From: a virus
Lineage: Duplodnaviria; Heunggongvirae; Uroviricota; Caudoviricetes
Reading direction: 5' to 3' (one strand)
IMG/VR virus record: IMGVR_UViG_2029527006_000005
Length of the DNA: 64,000 bases
The first letter of the stretch is position 1; the number at the start of each line of letters is the position of its first letter. The notes beneath the pieces are model-generated. The model saw only the letters and a program-made list of their open reading frames with translations. It had not been told where the DNA came from and did not search any database. The position numbers and the translations under genes are program-made. This document shows positions 5,561 to 62,891 of this stretch, piece after piece.

Positions 5561-5589
5561 ATTATATCACATGATTTCTGATTTGTCCC
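5561..5589 (-). promoter_or_regulatory. Phage early/middle promoter GGGACA-N17-TATAAT (with TGTG extension)
   Basis: One of 12 copies of tGGGACAa...TGTGATATAAT. Confidence 0.8.
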
Positions 5590-8031: not shown

Positions 8032-8060
8032 ATTATATCACATTATTCCGGGTTTGTCCC
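8032..8060 (-). promoter_or_regulatory. Phage early/middle promoter GGGACA-N17-TATAAT
   Basis: Motif copy. Confidence 0.8.
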
Positions 8061-30257: not shown

Positions 30258-30286
30258 ATTATATCACATTTTCTTCAAAATGTCCC
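30258..30286 (-). promoter_or_regulatory. Phage early/middle promoter (ssb proximal)
   Basis: GGGACA-N17-TATAAT. Confidence 0.8.
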
Positions 30287-30339: not shown

Positions 30340-30368
30340 ATTATATCACAAAAAATCCGGTTTGTCCC
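30340..30368 (-). promoter_or_regulatory. Phage early/middle promoter (ssb distal, tandem)
   Basis: GGGACA-N17-TATAAT. Confidence 0.8.
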
Positions 30369-31708: not shown

Positions 31709-33352
<1,644 letters not shown>

Positions 33353-33384: not shown

Positions 33385-33392
33385 TATTTATA
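33385..33392 (-). promoter_or_regulatory. T4-type late promoter TATAAATA for terL
   Basis: Exact consensus 45 nt upstream of ATG. Confidence 0.7.
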
Positions 33393-33981: not shown

Positions 33982-35031
<1,050 letters not shown>

Positions 35032-38299: not shown

Positions 38300-39031
38300 T
38301 TAGTTGCCTTGGATAAAGAACTGGAACACGGTGATGCCAGTGTCAACAGTGACGTTTAGCATACCAGTTTTAGTAATACCTAGGGAAATTTCTTCAGCAT
38401 TAGACACACGGTTTAGTGCTTGAAGAAGACGATCAATCGCGTAACCATAACCTAGCTTTAGTTCACCGTCAGTTTTGGTGAATGCAATTGCACCGCTATG
38501 GTTTGATTTATTCTTCTCACCAACGTGGAAGTATAGTGTATCACCTTCAGTATAAGGAGTAACTAAAGCAGAAAATGATTTGAATACACTAGAGAAAGAC
38601 TTTAGCTCTCCAACTTTTGCAGCACTAGGTGTAACCTGTACATCATATGGTTGTGGAGTAAAGCGTGGTTGGTTAGGAATAAATTTTTCCGATTGAACAA
38701 TAAAGTTAGTACTTGCATCATCAGATGTAAATGCTAGACTTTTAACAACACCGTTCGCTGCGTTGACTGCGATCTTTGCAGAGTCAGAGTTGTAAGTTTT
38801 TAGATTCATAAGACCTTGTAGCATTCCGAGGTTACCAAGACCGAAACGACCTTCAACTTCCGGTACGTCTTCTTTGGTGTGTGCTCGCATGATTAGAGTC
38901 TTATCATCTGTGTATGCTTCCAAATAAACACGGTCACCTTCGCCACGATCTTCTCGTGAAACTGCGATACAAGAAAAATCCATGCCGTTAGTAGTGTTTA
39001 CTAGGTCGCGTAGTACGTTGCGTAAATCCAT
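38300..39031 (-). CDS. Sliding clamp (gp45-like)
   Basis: 243 aa, alternating alpha/beta pattern, FGLGNLG motif, near polB; no strong motif. Confidence 0.6.
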   Translation of the reverse strand: MDLRNVLRDLVNTTNGMDFSCIAVSREDRGEGDRVYLEAYTDDKTLIMRAHTKEDVPEVEGRFGLGNLGMLQGLMNLKTYNSDSAKIAVNAANGVVKSLAFTSDDASTNFIVQSEKFIPNQPRFTPQPYDVQVTPSAAKVGELKSFSSVFKSFSALVTPYTEGDTLYFHVGEKNKSNHSGAIAFTKTDGELKLGYGYAIDRLLQALNRVSNAEEISLGITKTGMLNVTVDTGITVFQFFIQGN

Positions 39032-39087: not shown

Positions 39088-39116
39088 ATTATATCACATA
39101 ATCCCAGATACGTCCC
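39088..39116 (-). promoter_or_regulatory. Phage early/middle promoter, variant GGGACG-N17-TATAAT
   Basis: Motif copy. Confidence 0.75.
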
Positions 39117-39134: not shown

Positions 39135-39695
39135 TTACCAGTTGCGGTTTTGACGGTCGCCCTGATAACCTTGTTGATATGAAGTCCAGCTATCATCAGA
39201 TACTAAACGGCCTGATTTTTGGAACTCATCTTTGATTGCATTTGCAAAGCGAACTGAATCTTCAGAACTTAGATCACCAAGACTGATTTTAACAGTAGTT
39301 TTGGGAGTTTCTTCGTTATTAGGGAAGAAATAATCTTCTAAAATACTTAGAGGATTGTAAGCTGCATCCATTAGTGATGTAGTACTGCCTTTGTAAATTA
39401 GATTATCACTACCAGTACCAGTACTATACATGCGATAACCTTCAGGCCATTCTTGTACATACTTTTTTGGTTTATTGATATCATGATTCCAAACACCGGG
39501 TGATGGGGCATTGATAATTTGTTGAATTTTCACTTCAAACAATTTAAGTACTGAACCATTAAGTTCCATTGTACCAACCATTTTAAATCCTGCACCTTGT
39601 AGTACTTTCTCTTCAACATCGTTTAATGCTACTACTACTGTGATTTTACCTTGGGAAGCAATAGCTTCCCCAATGCGTTGAAAAATGTCTGCCAT
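39135..39695 (-). CDS. Unknown protein carrying an exact copy of a portal clip-region peptide
   Basis: Residues 106-125 TSLMDAAYNPLSILEDYFFP are identical to portal residues 333-352; AGGA SD. Confidence 0.8.
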   Translation of the reverse strand: MADIFQRIGEAIASQGKITVVVALNDVEEKVLQGAGFKMVGTMELNGSVLKLFEVKIQQIINAPSPGVWNHDINKPKKYVQEWPEGYRMYSTGTGSDNLIYKGSTTSLMDAAYNPLSILEDYFFPNNEETPKTTVKISLGDLSSEDSVRFANAIKDEFQKSGRLVSDDSWTSYQQGYQGDRQNRNW

Positions 39696-39708
39696 TTTAA
39701 TTCCTATT

Positions 39709-42700
39709 TTACCATGAGAAGAAGCCTGAGTCCATGACCATAGTACTCTTCTCGTTAATTGCGATATCCATGTTTAGAATACCAAATATGTTTCCTAGTT
39801 TCTTAGTCAAGACAGATTTTTCCATTTCATCTTCATCAAAAGGTAAATCCAAGAACCATTGTGGTAAGTACTCCGCACAATCAATTGGGTAGCCGACAGC
39901 TTTTATTCCCATTGGGTTTGGCTTCAACTTACATACGATGACTTTAGTACCATCTGTTGCTTCTGGTACAGATTGGTCTTCATAGATTTCACGTAATCGG
40001 TTCCACTGAATAGCTGCTAGAACATGAGATACAGATAGTTTTCCAACTTTCTTGTACTCTTCTTCAAGGTTAGAATAGTTCTTCACAGTACGTGGTTGAC
40101 CTTTTTGTTGAATTGGTTTGTCTTTGAAAATATTTTTGAACGCACGAACACGGTTACGTAGTTCTTCTTCTTGTTCGCCAACTAGTAATGCTATTAGTGT
40201 TTCTTGCAAGAAGTCTTGGATGTATTTTGGCGTGTCGGAACGTTTAATTTCCAAGCCCATCGCTTTAATCTCACCCGGTGAATCACCTTCGTCTTTACGG
40301 AATCCATCTTCCCAATATTTTAGGATTGCATAACGCTTCTTCTTCAAGAATAGACCACGTGAGCCTACCATTTCCAAATCCGCACCAACAATACGACCAT
40401 TTTCAATACCAGTATTGAACATCTCATCCATAAATTCAGGGAATGTTGCACCCATTTCGTCACCGATTTTCACGTACAAATCAACTACTTCTTCTTTGGT
40501 TAGATCAAACGGTAAACCTTGTTCTTTCATGTAATGTGCTACACTGAAATACACGGAGTCAGTGTCACCATAAATTACTACACCACCACCATGATCATAA
40601 ACACCAGTACAGATCTCGTTAATACGGGATGCCATGTGTTTAGTCATACTACGACCAGTTAAAGTAACTGATTGTCCTAGACGCTTATCGAAGAATCGAG
40701 AACCTTTGTTTAGTAGTGCACCATAAAGTGAGTTTAGAAGAATCTTACGAATCTGTTGGTTCTGTTTCCAGAATGCAGATTGTGTTTTACAATAAGATTT
40801 CTCTTCTTTTGTACATTTGATACGACCTTCTTCAAGGAGAAGACCATTTTCGGTGATTAGCTTCCCAACAGCCTCAAAATCGCTCTGTGTCAACGCCTGA
40901 CGGATTTTATACACAGGGTCATCTTCGTGTAGGTTGGTACGGTGCATGGTCTCAGAACGGCTGTAGCGAGCCATAGCAGCCATAATTACTGGTACTGCGT
41001 CCTCTGGCATCTCCCAACCATCAGAATAGATGTGTTTGAAGTCCAATACCATTTTCTGTTGCGATTTACGCTCAGAGTACCATTGAGTTAGAATCTCAGG
41101 GATAACACCGTACTTGGTCTTATCGAACATTGTACCATTAGCAGAAAGTACAATAGTACTATCAGGTGCATAAATGATATTATATAGTTCTTCGCCTGTT
41201 ACTTGGAAGCTAGTTCCATCTTCTAGGTCTACAATTAGTTTCTCTTGGGATTTTTCACGCACCATCGTAAATTCTACGGTTGCGAATAGACCATGCCATG
41301 CAGCCGTCCAATCTGGCTCGAATTTCTTCGATTTAGATTTAATACGCTGTTCATCAACACGTCTTGCAAGGTGTGCGTCGGTGTAGTCTTGGCGAATTTG
41401 ACCAAGGATACATTCAGTACTCATGCCTAATGCACGAAGTACAGTTGGATATAGTGAGTTAAAGTCAGTACATCCTAGGTAGTCTACAAGTCCTAATATT
41501 GGATCTTGTACCCATGCACCAGCCGCTTTAGCTGATACTTGTTCATTATCTGAACCATCATCCTCATCTTCAATGAGGTAATCATAACGATCATCTTGTT
41601 CTGACCCGGTATCTTCCTGTGGTTTCTTATCGAATACCACTTCACCCCTTGAGTGGGCTAGGTTAATGATAGCAGTGTCAATTAGAGCTACAGAACCCAT
41701 TGTAGTACTGATTAGTACACATTCTTTGTGTGCTAGTCGGTTGTGTAGGTTGATGAAGTCTAATTTTTCGTCAATCTTTTTAAGTAGAATACTATCCTGT
41801 TTAGAATAACGTAGGAACGTAATATAGTCTTCTCGATATAGTTTGTCAAGGGAACCATCATACGGTACTTTGTTTTCTTTGGTTACTTTCTCAGCGATAT
41901 AGTCTAGTTTGTACGATTGTTCTACTTGACCTGCGTGTTTCTTATACAACGCTAGATAATCTAGGTGAACACGACCAATTAGGTCATAAGTTACAATTGT
42001 CTTACCAAACATATCAGCTTCGCGAGTTACAGGCTTTTTATTCCACAAACACCAACGAGCGGTAGTAGCAACATTGAAAATCTTCGCTGTGCGGTTAACC
42101 ATGTACGGAATATCATAGAACTCACTGTTCCATCCTGAAAGTACGTCTGCATCTTCCATCAAATCGAAGAAGTCATTAAACATTTCAGTTTCTTCAGTAT
42201 AAAGTACAACTACACTGTTTGGATCATCGGTTTCTGCGTTTAGACGGTTAACAATATCTTGTGCTTCTACCAAATCCATCTCTTCTGGAGCTAAGGTTAG
42301 TACATAATCCTTACCTGTCCAGCTTTGATATAGGGAAATTGCAGTAACACGGTTAAATGGGTTACTTGGTGAGGCATATCCGAGCTTCTTGTGGAAGTCG
42401 GTTTCGATATCGAAAAACATCATGTTCAAATCAGGAGAACTCTTACCCATATATTCTTGAGCAAGGGTTTTGAAAGTTACGTTACAATCAGATTCGTAAG
42501 TTCGCTTTCCCTGATCTAATTCTAAGGAACTTTTCAAGTCACGATGACTAGAGAAAGTTTTCTTCTCTGCCATAGTGCCATGAATGGTTTTGAAAGTTCC
42601 TGTTGGTGATTCCACATAGTATTCATATAAAGGGTCTAGCTGTCGTAGAACACGACGACCATTCACACGTTCTGCCACGTGAAGTACATCACCAGTGCGT

Positions 42701-42729
42701 TTACGTTCCATAAATCCATCTATATACAT
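39709..42729 (-). CDS. gp43: Family B DNA polymerase (gp43-like)
   Basis: FDIET, GWNSEFYDIPY, YSKQD, DFNSLYP, KILLNSLYG, YGDTDS, KKRYA. Confidence 0.97.
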   Translation of the reverse strand: MYIDGFMERKRTGDVLHVAERVNGRRVLRQLDPLYEYYVESPTGTFKTIHGTMAEKKTFSSHRDLKSSLELDQGKRTYESDCNVTFKTLAQEYMGKSSPDLNMMFFDIETDFHKKLGYASPSNPFNRVTAISLYQSWTGKDYVLTLAPEEMDLVEAQDIVNRLNAETDDPNSVVVLYTEETEMFNDFFDLMEDADVLSGWNSEFYDIPYMVNRTAKIFNVATTARWCLWNKKPVTREADMFGKTIVTYDLIGRVHLDYLALYKKHAGQVEQSYKLDYIAEKVTKENKVPYDGSLDKLYREDYITFLRYSKQDSILLKKIDEKLDFINLHNRLAHKECVLISTTMGSVALIDTAIINLAHSRGEVVFDKKPQEDTGSEQDDRYDYLIEDEDDGSDNEQVSAKAAGAWVQDPILGLVDYLGCTDFNSLYPTVLRALGMSTECILGQIRQDYTDAHLARRVDEQRIKSKSKKFEPDWTAAWHGLFATVEFTMVREKSQEKLIVDLEDGTSFQVTGEELYNIIYAPDSTIVLSANGTMFDKTKYGVIPEILTQWYSERKSQQKMVLDFKHIYSDGWEMPEDAVPVIMAAMARYSRSETMHRTNLHEDDPVYKIRQALTQSDFEAVGKLITENGLLLEEGRIKCTKEEKSYCKTQSAFWKQNQQIRKILLNSLYGALLNKGSRFFDKRLGQSVTLTGRSMTKHMASRINEICTGVYDHGGGVVIYGDTDSVYFSVAHYMKEQGLPFDLTKEEVVDLYVKIGDEMGATFPEFMDEMFNTGIENGRIVGADLEMVGSRGLFLKKKRYAILKYWEDGFRKDEGDSPGEIKAMGLEIKRSDTPKYIQDFLQETLIALLVGEQEEELRNRVRAFKNIFKDKPIQQKGQPRTVKNYSNLEEEYKKVGKLSVSHVLAAIQWNRLREIYEDQSVPEATDGTKVIVCKLKPNPMGIKAVGYPIDCAEYLPQWFLDLPFDEDEMEKSVLTKKLGNIFGILNMDIAINEKSTMVMDSGFFSW

Positions 42730-42764: not shown

Positions 42765-42784
42765 AGCCTCCAATCTAGGAGGCT
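42765..42784 (-). terminator. Hairpin/terminator upstream of polB
   Basis: AGCCTCC-AATCTA-GGAGGCT plus U-run. Confidence 0.65.
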
Positions 42785-43147: not shown

Positions 43148-43176
43148 ATTATATCACATGATCTGTTTTTTGTCCC
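43148..43176 (-). promoter_or_regulatory. Phage early/middle promoter GGGACA-N17-TATAAT
   Basis: Motif copy. Confidence 0.8.
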
Positions 43177-45975: not shown

Positions 45976-45983
45976 TATTTATA
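45976..45983 (-). promoter_or_regulatory. T4-type late promoter TATAAATA
   Basis: Exact consensus 35 nt upstream of the fibre ATG. Confidence 0.7.
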
Positions 45984-49230: not shown

Positions 49231-49238
49231 TATTTATA
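49231..49238 (-). promoter_or_regulatory. T4-type late promoter TATAAATA
   Basis: Exact consensus. Confidence 0.7.
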
Positions 49239-50825: not shown

Positions 50826-50833
50826 TATTTATA
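50826..50833 (-). promoter_or_regulatory. T4-type late promoter TATAAATA
   Basis: Exact consensus. Confidence 0.7.
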
Positions 50834-51181: not shown

Positions 51182-52927
51182 TTAGAAAGAATTGCCTAAA
51201 TTATTCGGGTTAAAATCATCGTTTTGAACCATATCTTGGAATTCTTTATCAGCACTTTCCATATTACCTTCTTCATCCATTCCTAAATCCATTCCCGGAT
51301 CATTAGGGGCATCAATACCAACAGATTTCAATCCAGCAGCATCTTCACCATTAGAAGCGTTAAGTGCGTCAGGATTTTCTTGTAACCATAATTGCTCATT
51401 CTCAACAATATCACTTTGTTCAAAGCCCATTTTCTTAAGAATTGTTTGTTTAGCAACATAAGGTAAACCGTCAAGGCTCATATAAGTACTAATTAGTTTT
51501 GCATCCAACTCAGCCTTACGATAAGAAGCAAAGTTAATTGGTGGGTTAAAAATAACCTCGAATGATGAAGCACTAATGCTATAACCATTCTTAACCATAT
51601 AACGTTTAAATTCCATATCGAATACTTTAGCTATTAGTCGTTGATAACGCATACATTGGTTATTAAAACGTAATTCACTAGTCATTGCCTGTGTAGCACC
51701 GTCACCAAATAAAGCAACACCACCATCATCTGGACCTTGCGGTAGATAAGAGGCAGGAATTTGTAGACCACGAATCAATTTGTTGTTAAAATAACGCAAG
51801 TCATCGATTTGACCCAAGTTATCACCACCCGGTAATGTTTCTACAGATGAACCACGACCTTCCGAAGTTTGTGGGAAGAAATAGTCTTCTAGAATACTTA
51901 ATGGGTTATAAGCTGCATCCATTAGTGAAGTACTTCCACCTTTATTAGAAGGAATACGACGCTGGTGGATTTCATTCTTAAAGCGTTCTACATAAGCCAT
52001 TGCTTGGTGAGTTTGCATTTCACCAACATCGATTTTAAATACTCGACGCTCTGGTGCACGTTGAACACGATAGATGATAATACTATCTTCTAGAAGTTCT
52101 TTTTGTTTATAAACTTTAAAGACATATTCTAGAATACTAGTGCCGAAAGGCCATACTGGATCTTGTCCTGTATTTAGTGTTAGGTGAACTACGTGTTCTG
52201 CCGCAACAGGAAGAACATCTTTACGACCAGCAGCCATATTGAATGGGTCAGCACTTTGTGCGTTACCAGCATTCGCATAACCACCACCCATTCCACCGAA
52301 CTGACTAGCAGAACCGCTTAATGCGTTTGGCAATGAACCCGGATAGGCCATTTTATCAAAACCAATTTGAAGGTTTGAGAAAATTTTATCTTGCATGTTA
52401 TAAGAGATATCTCTCATAAAGTAAGCAACAGGGTTTTTACCAGTTTCTTCGTTGACAAATACACCTTCAACGTTTGCTGGGTTTACCCAAACCCATTCCA
52501 TAGTTTCTGGGTCACGAACAAAGAACTGATCTCCATATTTTAAAAGTCCACGAACTATTTCATAAATTCTGGTTTTAAAATCGTTTTGTTCAGCCCATGA
52601 TTCTAAACGATCTTCCAAAGTAGTAACTTCAGAGTCGCCAATTTTATCTTTGTATCTAATTTTAAATGGTAAACCGAAATCTTCAACACTTTGAGTACAG
52701 AAGTCTGCGATAATATCTAGTGAGGTTCTAATTTCTGGGTCTTGGTCCATTTGTTCATATTGTCTGTATCGATCAGTACGATTCGACAAGCCCGTATATA
52801 CTACGGGCAAGTAAGAAGCATAGTTAGATTTGGAACCAGTACTTTTAGCAGTACTTCCTTTATCTTGCTCGATATTCGAGGTCGATACTTTTGACCTCGC
52901 AGTTGTCATCTGACGTTTCCAACTCAT
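51182..52927 (-). CDS. gp20: Portal protein (gp20-like)
   Basis: YRQYEQM, EDSIIIYRVQRAPERRVFKIDVG, EDYFFP, ETLPGG, DDLRYF, ELRF. Confidence 0.96.
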   Translation of the reverse strand: MSWKRQMTTARSKVSTSNIEQDKGSTAKSTGSKSNYASYLPVVYTGLSNRTDRYRQYEQMDQDPEIRTSLDIIADFCTQSVEDFGLPFKIRYKDKIGDSEVTTLEDRLESWAEQNDFKTRIYEIVRGLLKYGDQFFVRDPETMEWVWVNPANVEGVFVNEETGKNPVAYFMRDISYNMQDKIFSNLQIGFDKMAYPGSLPNALSGSASQFGGMGGGYANAGNAQSADPFNMAAGRKDVLPVAAEHVVHLTLNTGQDPVWPFGTSILEYVFKVYKQKELLEDSIIIYRVQRAPERRVFKIDVGEMQTHQAMAYVERFKNEIHQRRIPSNKGGSTSLMDAAYNPLSILEDYFFPQTSEGRGSSVETLPGGDNLGQIDDLRYFNNKLIRGLQIPASYLPQGPDDGGVALFGDGATQAMTSELRFNNQCMRYQRLIAKVFDMEFKRYMVKNGYSISASSFEVIFNPPINFASYRKAELDAKLISTYMSLDGLPYVAKQTILKKMGFEQSDIVENEQLWLQENPDALNASNGEDAAGLKSVGIDAPNDPGMDLGMDEEGNMESADKEFQDMVQNDDFNPNNLGNSF

Positions 52928-56961: not shown

Positions 56962-56990
56962 ATTATATCACACTTTTGCTCATTTGTCCC
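56962..56990 (-). promoter_or_regulatory. Phage early/middle promoter facing the non-coding region
   Basis: GGGACA-N17-TATAAT. Confidence 0.8.
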
Positions 56991-62863: not shown

Positions 62864-62891
62864 ATTATATCACATTTTTCGAGTTTGTCCC
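62864..62891 (-). promoter_or_regulatory. Phage early/middle promoter GGGACA-N16-TATAAT for gp55-47-46
   Basis: Motif copy. Confidence 0.75.

Follow-up and report, generated by a model that had tools for sequence, protein, structure and literature searches.

Why should a small gene that directly follows the DNA polymerase gene of a jumbo phage encode 20 consecutive residues of that phage's portal protein? The question is raised by a 64 000 nt stretch of viral DNA (IMG/VR record IMGVR_UViG_2029527006_000005), here called the window, which is part of a RaK2/GAP32/121Q-like jumbo phage. The nearest isolates are the Salmonella phages Munch, 7t3 and SE_PL and the Klebsiella phage fENko-Kae01. The portals of these phages share 96% identity with that of the window, whereas their small proteins, here named clip-copy proteins, are just 60% identical to the window's small protein. 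The features relevant to this gene and to the portal are listed in Table 1.

Table 1. Location and properties of the clip-copy gene, the portal gene and associated features in the window
Feature	Position	Strand	Details
Clip-copy gene (P0001)	39135..39695	-	186 aa; PHROG 25089 (E 2.6e-23), PHROG 36847 (E 8e-8)
N-terminal domain, residues 1-55	39531..39695	-	helix-strand-helix-strand-strand; AF2 pLDDT 73-88
Element B, residues 102-125	39321..39392	-	copy of portal 329-352 (loop and strand segment); contains the 20-aa peptide (39321-39380)
Element A, residues 131-162	39210..39305	-	copy of portal 293-324 (first clip strand and clip helix); downstream of B
C-terminal tail, residues 163-186	39138..39209	-	DDSWTSY..GY.G.R..RNW; kept only in the permuted-clip sub-clade
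Family B DNA polymerase	39709..42729	-	PHROG 262 (E 1.8e-212); directly upstream of the clip-copy gene
GGGACA-N-TGTGATATAAT promoter	43148..43176	-	upstream of the unit 114-aa gene, DNA polymerase and clip-copy gene
243-aa gene	38300..39031	-	PHROG 12062; own GGGACG...TATAAT promoter (39088-39116)
Portal gene	51182..52927	-	581 aa; Pfam Portal_T4 (E 4.4e-116); source of the copied segments
Portal clip segments, native order	51863..52051	-	A, residues 293-324 (51956-52051); B, residues 329-355 (51863-51943)
Large terminase	31709..33340	-	Pfam Terminase_6N (E 4.8e-14); late box TATAAATA (33385-33392); candidate clip ligand

A portal peptide outside the portal gene

The clip-copy gene is preceded by a Shine-Dalgarno sequence, AGGA (39702-39705), and its start lies 13 nt past the stop codon of the DNA polymerase gene. 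Residues 106-125 of its product, TSLMDAAYNPLSILEDYFFP, are identical to residues 333-352 of the portal, in agreement with the original prediction. The two 60 nt stretches that encode this peptide differ at eight positions in eight codons, and every difference is synonymous, matching the changes given in the original prediction. Outside the shared peptide the flanks are unrelated, with the two proteins diverging immediately. When all of the window's stop-to-stop frames that encode 50 aa or more, 322 in total, were compared, the clip-copy protein and the portal were the sole pair with more than one 7-mer in common, sharing 14 that overlap. The portal of the window matches the T4 gp20 structures 3ja7/6uzc (E 2e-25).

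BLASTP and Pfam detect just the peptide block in the clip-copy protein. The Pfam match, to PF07230 (Portal_T4), scores 15.2 bits, below the 22.9-bit cut-off, and is confined to positions 244-272 of the 433 in the profile. A portal has a full wing-stem-clip-stem-crown architecture of approximately 450-600 residues, which the clip-copy protein does not have. The wing, stem, crown and tunnel loop are absent from its 186 residues, and its homology to the portal is limited to portal residues 293-324 and 329-355. Because it falls below the Pfam threshold and the other portal domains are missing, the clip-copy protein cannot be a portal.

A rearranged copy of the portal clip

The portal peptide is part of a longer copied segment, element B, and is followed by a further stretch that resembles the portal, element A. 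In the window pair alone the likeness of element A is weak: BLASTP gave an E value of 4.8, and a colinear alternative was also returned. However, the case is decisive at the family level. When a profile of 24 relatives was aligned to the portal using hhalign, the segment after the peptide matched portal residues 293-324 with a probability of 98.1% and an E value of 7e-14, while the peptide block matched portal residues 329-355 (E 1.1e-15). The permuted second element proposed from the single pair is therefore borne out. A helix is predicted at residues 144-161 of the clip-copy protein.

Several relatives read ...EDYFFPEATGRGNSVET-RTFKIDVGDL...YVEKFKKEIHK, a string that corresponds to portal FFPQT.EGRGSSVET followed by portal ERRVFKIDVGEM...YVERFKNEIHQ. 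In the portal, the latter part stands upstream of the peptide. On these alignments, the order B then A in the clip-copy protein is a circular permutation of the A-B order found in the portal.

The clip of T4 gp20 comprises residues 279-358 (PMC4493910). In an alignment with gp20, element A corresponds to T4 residues 281-312 and the 20-residue peptide to T4 residues 318-337, so that both copied elements fall inside the clip, where the peptide had been placed from the outset. Three strands and helix alpha-6 make up the T4 clip, which is exposed outside the capsid and to which gp17 and the neck attach (PMC4493910). The clip sheet combines one strand from one subunit with two from the neighbour, and the clip holds the sole main-chain-bonded contact between portal subunits (PMC4493910); this cross-subunit strand pairing is taken from the text of that paper rather than from coordinates. 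When mapped onto T4, the copied segments cover the inter-subunit elements of the clip, and the second half of element B would lie in a clip strand.

With significant homology to both clip halves, the presence of a free clip module, with its halves re-ordered and carried by a conserved N-terminal domain, is firm at the level of sequence, and the clip-copy protein is best described as that domain joined to a circularly permuted portal clip. Relative to the clip of T4-type portals (gp20 279-358; PF07230), it keeps the homology of both halves and the same invariant residues. It differs in that it retains approximately 60 of 581 residues, with the halves swapped and fused to an unrelated N-terminal domain, and in that it is not predicted to fold alone. 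A 24-residue peptide of T4 gp20, residues 288-311, binds gp17 and inhibits packaging (cited in PMC4493910), and is likewise a free piece of the clip that acts in trans. It corresponds to window portal residues 300-323, which form the helix of element A. While the T4 peptide is a synthetic laboratory product, the clip copy is a natural conserved gene, and its best-kept part is the equivalent of T4 318-337.

N-terminal domain, C-terminal tail and predicted fold

The N-terminal domain of approximately 55 residues is common to every family member, clip-less ones included, and has seven invariant residues (I4, R7, G9, S14, G16, F37 and G41). Fold searches with this domain returned generic alpha/beta matches only, with Z scores up to 5.6 and an Atlas feature score of 0.80, and led to no assignment. 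The C-terminal tail, residues 163-186, was matched nowhere outside the permuted-clip sub-clade.

In two AF2 monomer runs, one on the window protein and one on the relative with the fullest clip copy (P0015), the clip module had pLDDT values of 42-76. Element A was modelled as a helix and element B as a low-confidence helix. From these models we infer that the clip module is disordered when alone, although the low confidence may merely reflect the shallow alignment (24-31 sequences).

Many family members, irrespective of the rest of the rear half, end in R-N-[W/V/I]-COOH. The window protein ends in ...NRNW, that of GAP32 in ...VRNV, that of Serratia BF in ...CRNI and P0030 in ...ARNI. This ending may be a short C-terminal docking motif.

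A family with a fixed location and a variable rear half

Relatives were gathered using a word-indexed search, which yielded 24, and an exhaustive HMMER search, which yielded 26. Two HMMER matches were dropped, a Gram-positive repeat adhesin (P0038) and a portal fragment (P0046). By HMM match, N-terminal domain and synteny, the clip-copy protein belongs to PHROG 25089/36847, together with GAP32_258, CBB_264, XbC2_260, CPT_Munch_291 and 7t3_0466, and like them it is encoded after the DNA polymerase gene. The databases hold no function or domain note for these PHROGs, and neither their relationship to the portal nor the permutation was found described in the literature searched.

In all of the RaK2/GAP32/121Q-like jumbo phages examined, the family gene follows the DNA polymerase gene. 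The gene order polymerase, clip-copy gene, 243-aa gene, phosphoesterase, zinc ribbon and Cpn10-like gene is common to Munch, GAP32, XbC2, CBB, Hallingskeid, Serratia BF, Yen9-03, 121Q and several metagenomic contigs. The portal relationship provides the first clue to the function of a gene that lacks annotation but is found in every RaK2-like jumbo phage examined.

Downstream of the N-terminal domain, several architectures were seen. The permuted B-A rear half is present in the window, Munch, Hallingskeid and many metagenomic forms. A small group (P0023-25 and P0032) has A and B in the native order right behind the N-terminal domain. B is present without the helix in GAP32, XbC2 and CBB, and in two copies in P0021 and P0028. 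Nothing recognisable follows the domain in Serratia BF, Yen9, 121Q and others, apart from a decayed A, with no B, in 121Q. The circular permutation is a clean natural one, with native-order and permuted relatives both extant in sequenced phages. The possibility that a portal-like first strand follows the N-terminal domain in all members was considered and rejected, as there were no significant matches in the GAP32/BF or permuted groups; such a strand is limited to the native-order/121Q group (E 3.8e-9).

A tree of the N-terminal domain was built from 71 columns, and only its well-supported branches were used. The permuted forms are confined to one of its two main clades. These branches force the no-B state to change at least five times, including between sister pairs such as XbC2/P0047, and we read the changes as repeated losses of the clip module. 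As it has been lost repeatedly in close relatives, the module is accessory. It is also not needed for portal assembly as such, because the five or more losses occurred where the portals keep an identical peptide.

Selection on the peptide and age of the copy

Neither the eight isolate portals examined nor the portals of paired metagenomic contigs show any variation in the portal peptide, the core motif of which was found in 117 of 120 portal homologues. As it does not vary in the paired genomes, a phage's own portal offers no change with which the clip-copy peptide could co-vary. In the small proteins the peptide has drifted: the copy in Munch is changed at one position, that in the closest relative at two and those in the GAP32 group at two to four. 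The closest relative, which is 80% identical overall, has its two substitutions in element B while its own portal peptide is unchanged. The original prediction held that the peptide is being kept identical to the portal. Retention at the peptide level stands, given the eight synonymous differences, but exact identity does not, given the drift of one to four residues in relatives. Judged from the alignments, what is conserved is the motif L.DAAY[ND]PLSILEDYFFP and not identity to the portal. This motif is near-invariant across approximately 35 diverged family members that are 40-60% identical in other parts, and, the N-terminal domain aside, no block of the family is better conserved than element B. 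In two metagenomic portal homologues, of 952 and 806 residues (P0096 and P0097), an intein-type domain (PF14890) is inserted.

Comparison of the underlying DNA revealed that the copies in the small genes share codons of their own (GAT, AAT or GAT, often CCT) that set them apart from the portal lineage (GAC, AAC, CCA). The copy in the window differs by 8 nt from its own portal and by 8-9 nt from the portals of other phages, whereas the distance between any two portals in this stretch is 1-5 nt. Because the small-gene copies carry their own lineage-specific codons, their retention goes back to a time before the split of these genera. On this evidence the copy is old, predating that split, and its peptide is maintained by purifying selection. 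Recent gene conversion by the portal gene was rejected, as the copy is not nearer to the portal of its own phage than to those of others and its codons are lineage-specific. A DNA- or RNA-level element behind the shared stretch was also rejected, as the synonymous similarity tracks the codon preference of all portals.

Expression context

A promoter motif, GGGAC-N17-19-TATAAT, usually GGGACA...TGTGATATAAT, occurs nine times in the window against 0.07 expected. The GGGACA-N12-TGTGATATAAT sites, all on the minus strand, are at 5561-5589, 8032-8060, 30258-30286, 30340-30368, 35004-35031, 39088-39116, 43148-43176, 56962-56990 and 62864-62891. In addition to the unit that includes the polymerase and clip-copy genes (Table 1), promoters of this class precede the 243-aa gene, a 5'-3' exonuclease gene, a gp32-like gene and a non-coding region at 56.5-57.0 kb. 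The class resembles the 'divergent RpoD-like' class of CBB and GAP32, but the upstream box differs.

T4-type late boxes, TATAAATA, are found on the minus strand at 33385-33392, 45976-45983, 49231-49238 and 50826-50833. They lie 20-45 nt before the genes for terminase, a 534-aa protein, a 381-aa protein encoded after the prohead protease and an acidic core protein, so that neighbours of the portal gene have late boxes as the terminase gene does. No TATAAATA box was found ahead of the polymerase or clip-copy gene. CBB has the same three promoter classes, with its DNA-synthesis genes in a non-late class (PMC5259590). The DNA polymerase and clip-copy genes are probably co-transcribed, and from the promoter motifs we infer that the clip-copy gene belongs to the replication (middle) class and is expressed ahead of the late portal and terminase genes. 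The clip-copy protein would then probably be made before the portal, as the original prediction had suggested. CBB_264 is missing from the CBB virion proteome table, but this is weak evidence as the CBB portal is missing from the same table.

Possible roles of the clip-copy protein

Tentatively, and with a probability of roughly 0.3, we favour a role in which the clip-copy protein pairs with unassembled portal subunits. It would act as a two-part adaptor, in which a family-specific N-terminal domain and a free-standing, circularly permuted clip are connected by a predicted flexible linker. Produced from a replication-class unit, it would be present ahead of the late portal. Element B, aided by A where A is present, would pair with a portal subunit in the way that the neighbouring subunit does, and so cap the exposed inter-subunit edge of the portal clip. 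This could delay or steer the formation of the portal ring. It could also hide the face of the monomeric portal that is used by monomer-reading sensors such as Avs4; EcAvs4 uses a face on portal monomers (PMC12847820). Any such effect would be limited to the pre-assembly pool, since no edge is left free once the portal ring is complete.

The residues kept in element B are those that are invariant across 54 portals (D337, Y340, P342, E347, D348, F351 and P352), which suggests that B keeps a portal-like packing environment. Outside the family, the portal was the only protein found that packs against B. Pairing with a portal subunit is favoured because the best-kept element is B, part of which would lie in an inter-subunit strand, and not the helix that contacts terminase. 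It is also favoured because members with B only are without a folded clip surface and can merely complement the normal packing partner of B, and because the module is predicted to be disordered alone, as expected for a segment that folds on its partner. Against it stand the repeated losses of the module and the lack of strict matching to the portal, since the nearest relative has two substitutions in B and an unchanged portal. A further point against the capping of portal subunits is that it leaves the universally conserved N-terminal domain unaccounted for. If the clip-copy protein does cap portal monomers, it would represent a new kind of assembly control.

The clip is also a documented immune epitope, and a counter-defence decoy is possible, if doubtful. 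Here, an early, monovalent clip copy would occupy the portal-binding site of a host sensor without activating it, the missing ingredient being the whole fold or the 12-fold ring geometry. Candidate sensors are STAND proteins of the Avs4/Avs11 type and the clip-docking or ring-reading SpbK and RAZR. SpbK uses its N-terminal domain to dock onto the clip helix of dodecameric YonE, and the contacts of EcAvs4 are with the stem, clip and wing (PMC12847820); Avs11 (PMC13581612) and RAZR (PMC13017515) are further portal sensors. The peptide, as the most conserved portal motif (117/120), would be a natural target for pattern recognition, and repeated loss, duplication of B and shuffled architecture fit an accessory gene driven by conflict. 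SpbK-YonE, EcAvs4-gp8 and Nip together show that host sensors read the clip and that phage inhibitors are made before the portal, and the promoter motifs suggest pre-portal expression of the clip-copy gene, like that of the counter-defence protein Nip (PMC11984713). However, Nip, the only known counter-defence to a clip sensor, binds the TIR effector domain and is no mimic of the portal (PMC11984713). A mimic of the trigger could activate the sensor instead of blocking it, Avs4 reads an extended surface of which the clip piece is a small part, and peptide-only members are unable to present a folded clip surface. Moreover, the gene has a fixed place in the core polymerase unit in every genus examined, unlike typical anti-defence islands. 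The broader proposal, that an early mimic of the portal edge blinds sensors of the Avs4, Avs11, SpbK or RAZR type, whether by pairing with monomers or by occupying the sensor, we regard as doubtful. If portal sensors are blocked, Avs-type immunity would for the first time be seen to be countered by a mimic of its trigger, made from a copied part of that trigger; no portal-clip paralogue or portal-mimicking counter-defence was found in the literature searched. The original description of the protein as a portal mimic is partly supported, at the level of sequence and evolution.

Competition for the packaging motor or neck appears unlikely. In that case the free clip would hold the large terminase, or a neck protein, until proheads with portals are available, or would tether it near the replication machinery. 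The T4 clip binds gp17 and the neck (PMC4493910), the inhibitory T4 peptide corresponds to the helix of the copied element A, and most members that have A retain the D-[L/M] pair that corresponds to T4 N291-M292. The terminase gene is 6 kb away and has a late promoter. Nevertheless, conservation within the copy is lowest in the helix, which is missing in the GAP32/XbC2/CBB group, the equivalents of T4 R295/K296 are variable and are H-Q in the portal of this clade itself, and a self-encoded inhibitor of packaging needs an extra release mechanism. It is more improbable still that the clip strands merely oligomerise the protein, possibly into a clip-like ring, while the N-terminal domain performs a task in replication. 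Such a role would fit with self-association of the clip in portals, the conserved place between the polymerase and clamp-like genes and the universal conservation of the N-terminal domain. It is at odds with the B-only members, which are without a complementary strand and helix, and with the N-terminal domain, which has no informative fold match; nothing ties the protein to DNA or to the clamp. It is very improbable that the module has no function and survives as the remnant of an old recombination of the portal gene with a small gene next to it. Although its many losses might be expected of a relic, all eight differences in 60 nt are synonymous, the motif is near-invariant in the diverged members, and lineage-specific codons have been retained since before the genera split. 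A link to the portal-RelA/SpoT interaction was considered and rejected, as the T7 clip is not the binding surface (bioRxiv 10.64898/2026.01.27.700999).

The portal clip joins subunits, receives the packaging motor and the neck, and is read by at least two bacterial immune systems. A natural, conserved protein with this piece of the portal alone is a ready-made probe of clip binding in vivo.

Genes adjacent to the clip-copy gene

The original prediction placed the clip-copy gene between the genes for DNA polymerase and the sliding clamp. The polymerase assignment is clear (Table 1), and the polymerase of the window ends in ...GFFSW. For the 243-aa protein encoded downstream, no HMM match (Pfam, NCBIfam) and no PDB sequence match was obtained, but its Atlas language-model feature similarity to gp45/PCNA clusters is 0.94-0.95. 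The clamp named in the original prediction is thus a lead and not an established assignment. A gp45 homologue is undetectable in RaK2-like phages according to the CBB paper (PMC5259590), and the 243-aa protein may be the missing gp45-type sliding clamp.

Two further features were seen near these genes, both on the minus strand. A terminator-like hairpin (AGCCTCC...GGAGGCT followed by a T-run) lies at 42765-42784, between the 114-aa gene and the polymerase start and thereby within the presumed operon. A possible role is the attenuation of polymerase and clip-copy expression. In the promoter at 39088-39116, ahead of the 243-aa gene, a 9 bp inverted repeat (GACGTATCT ... AGATACGTC) brackets the -10 box and could be an operator or form an RNA hairpin at the start of the transcript.
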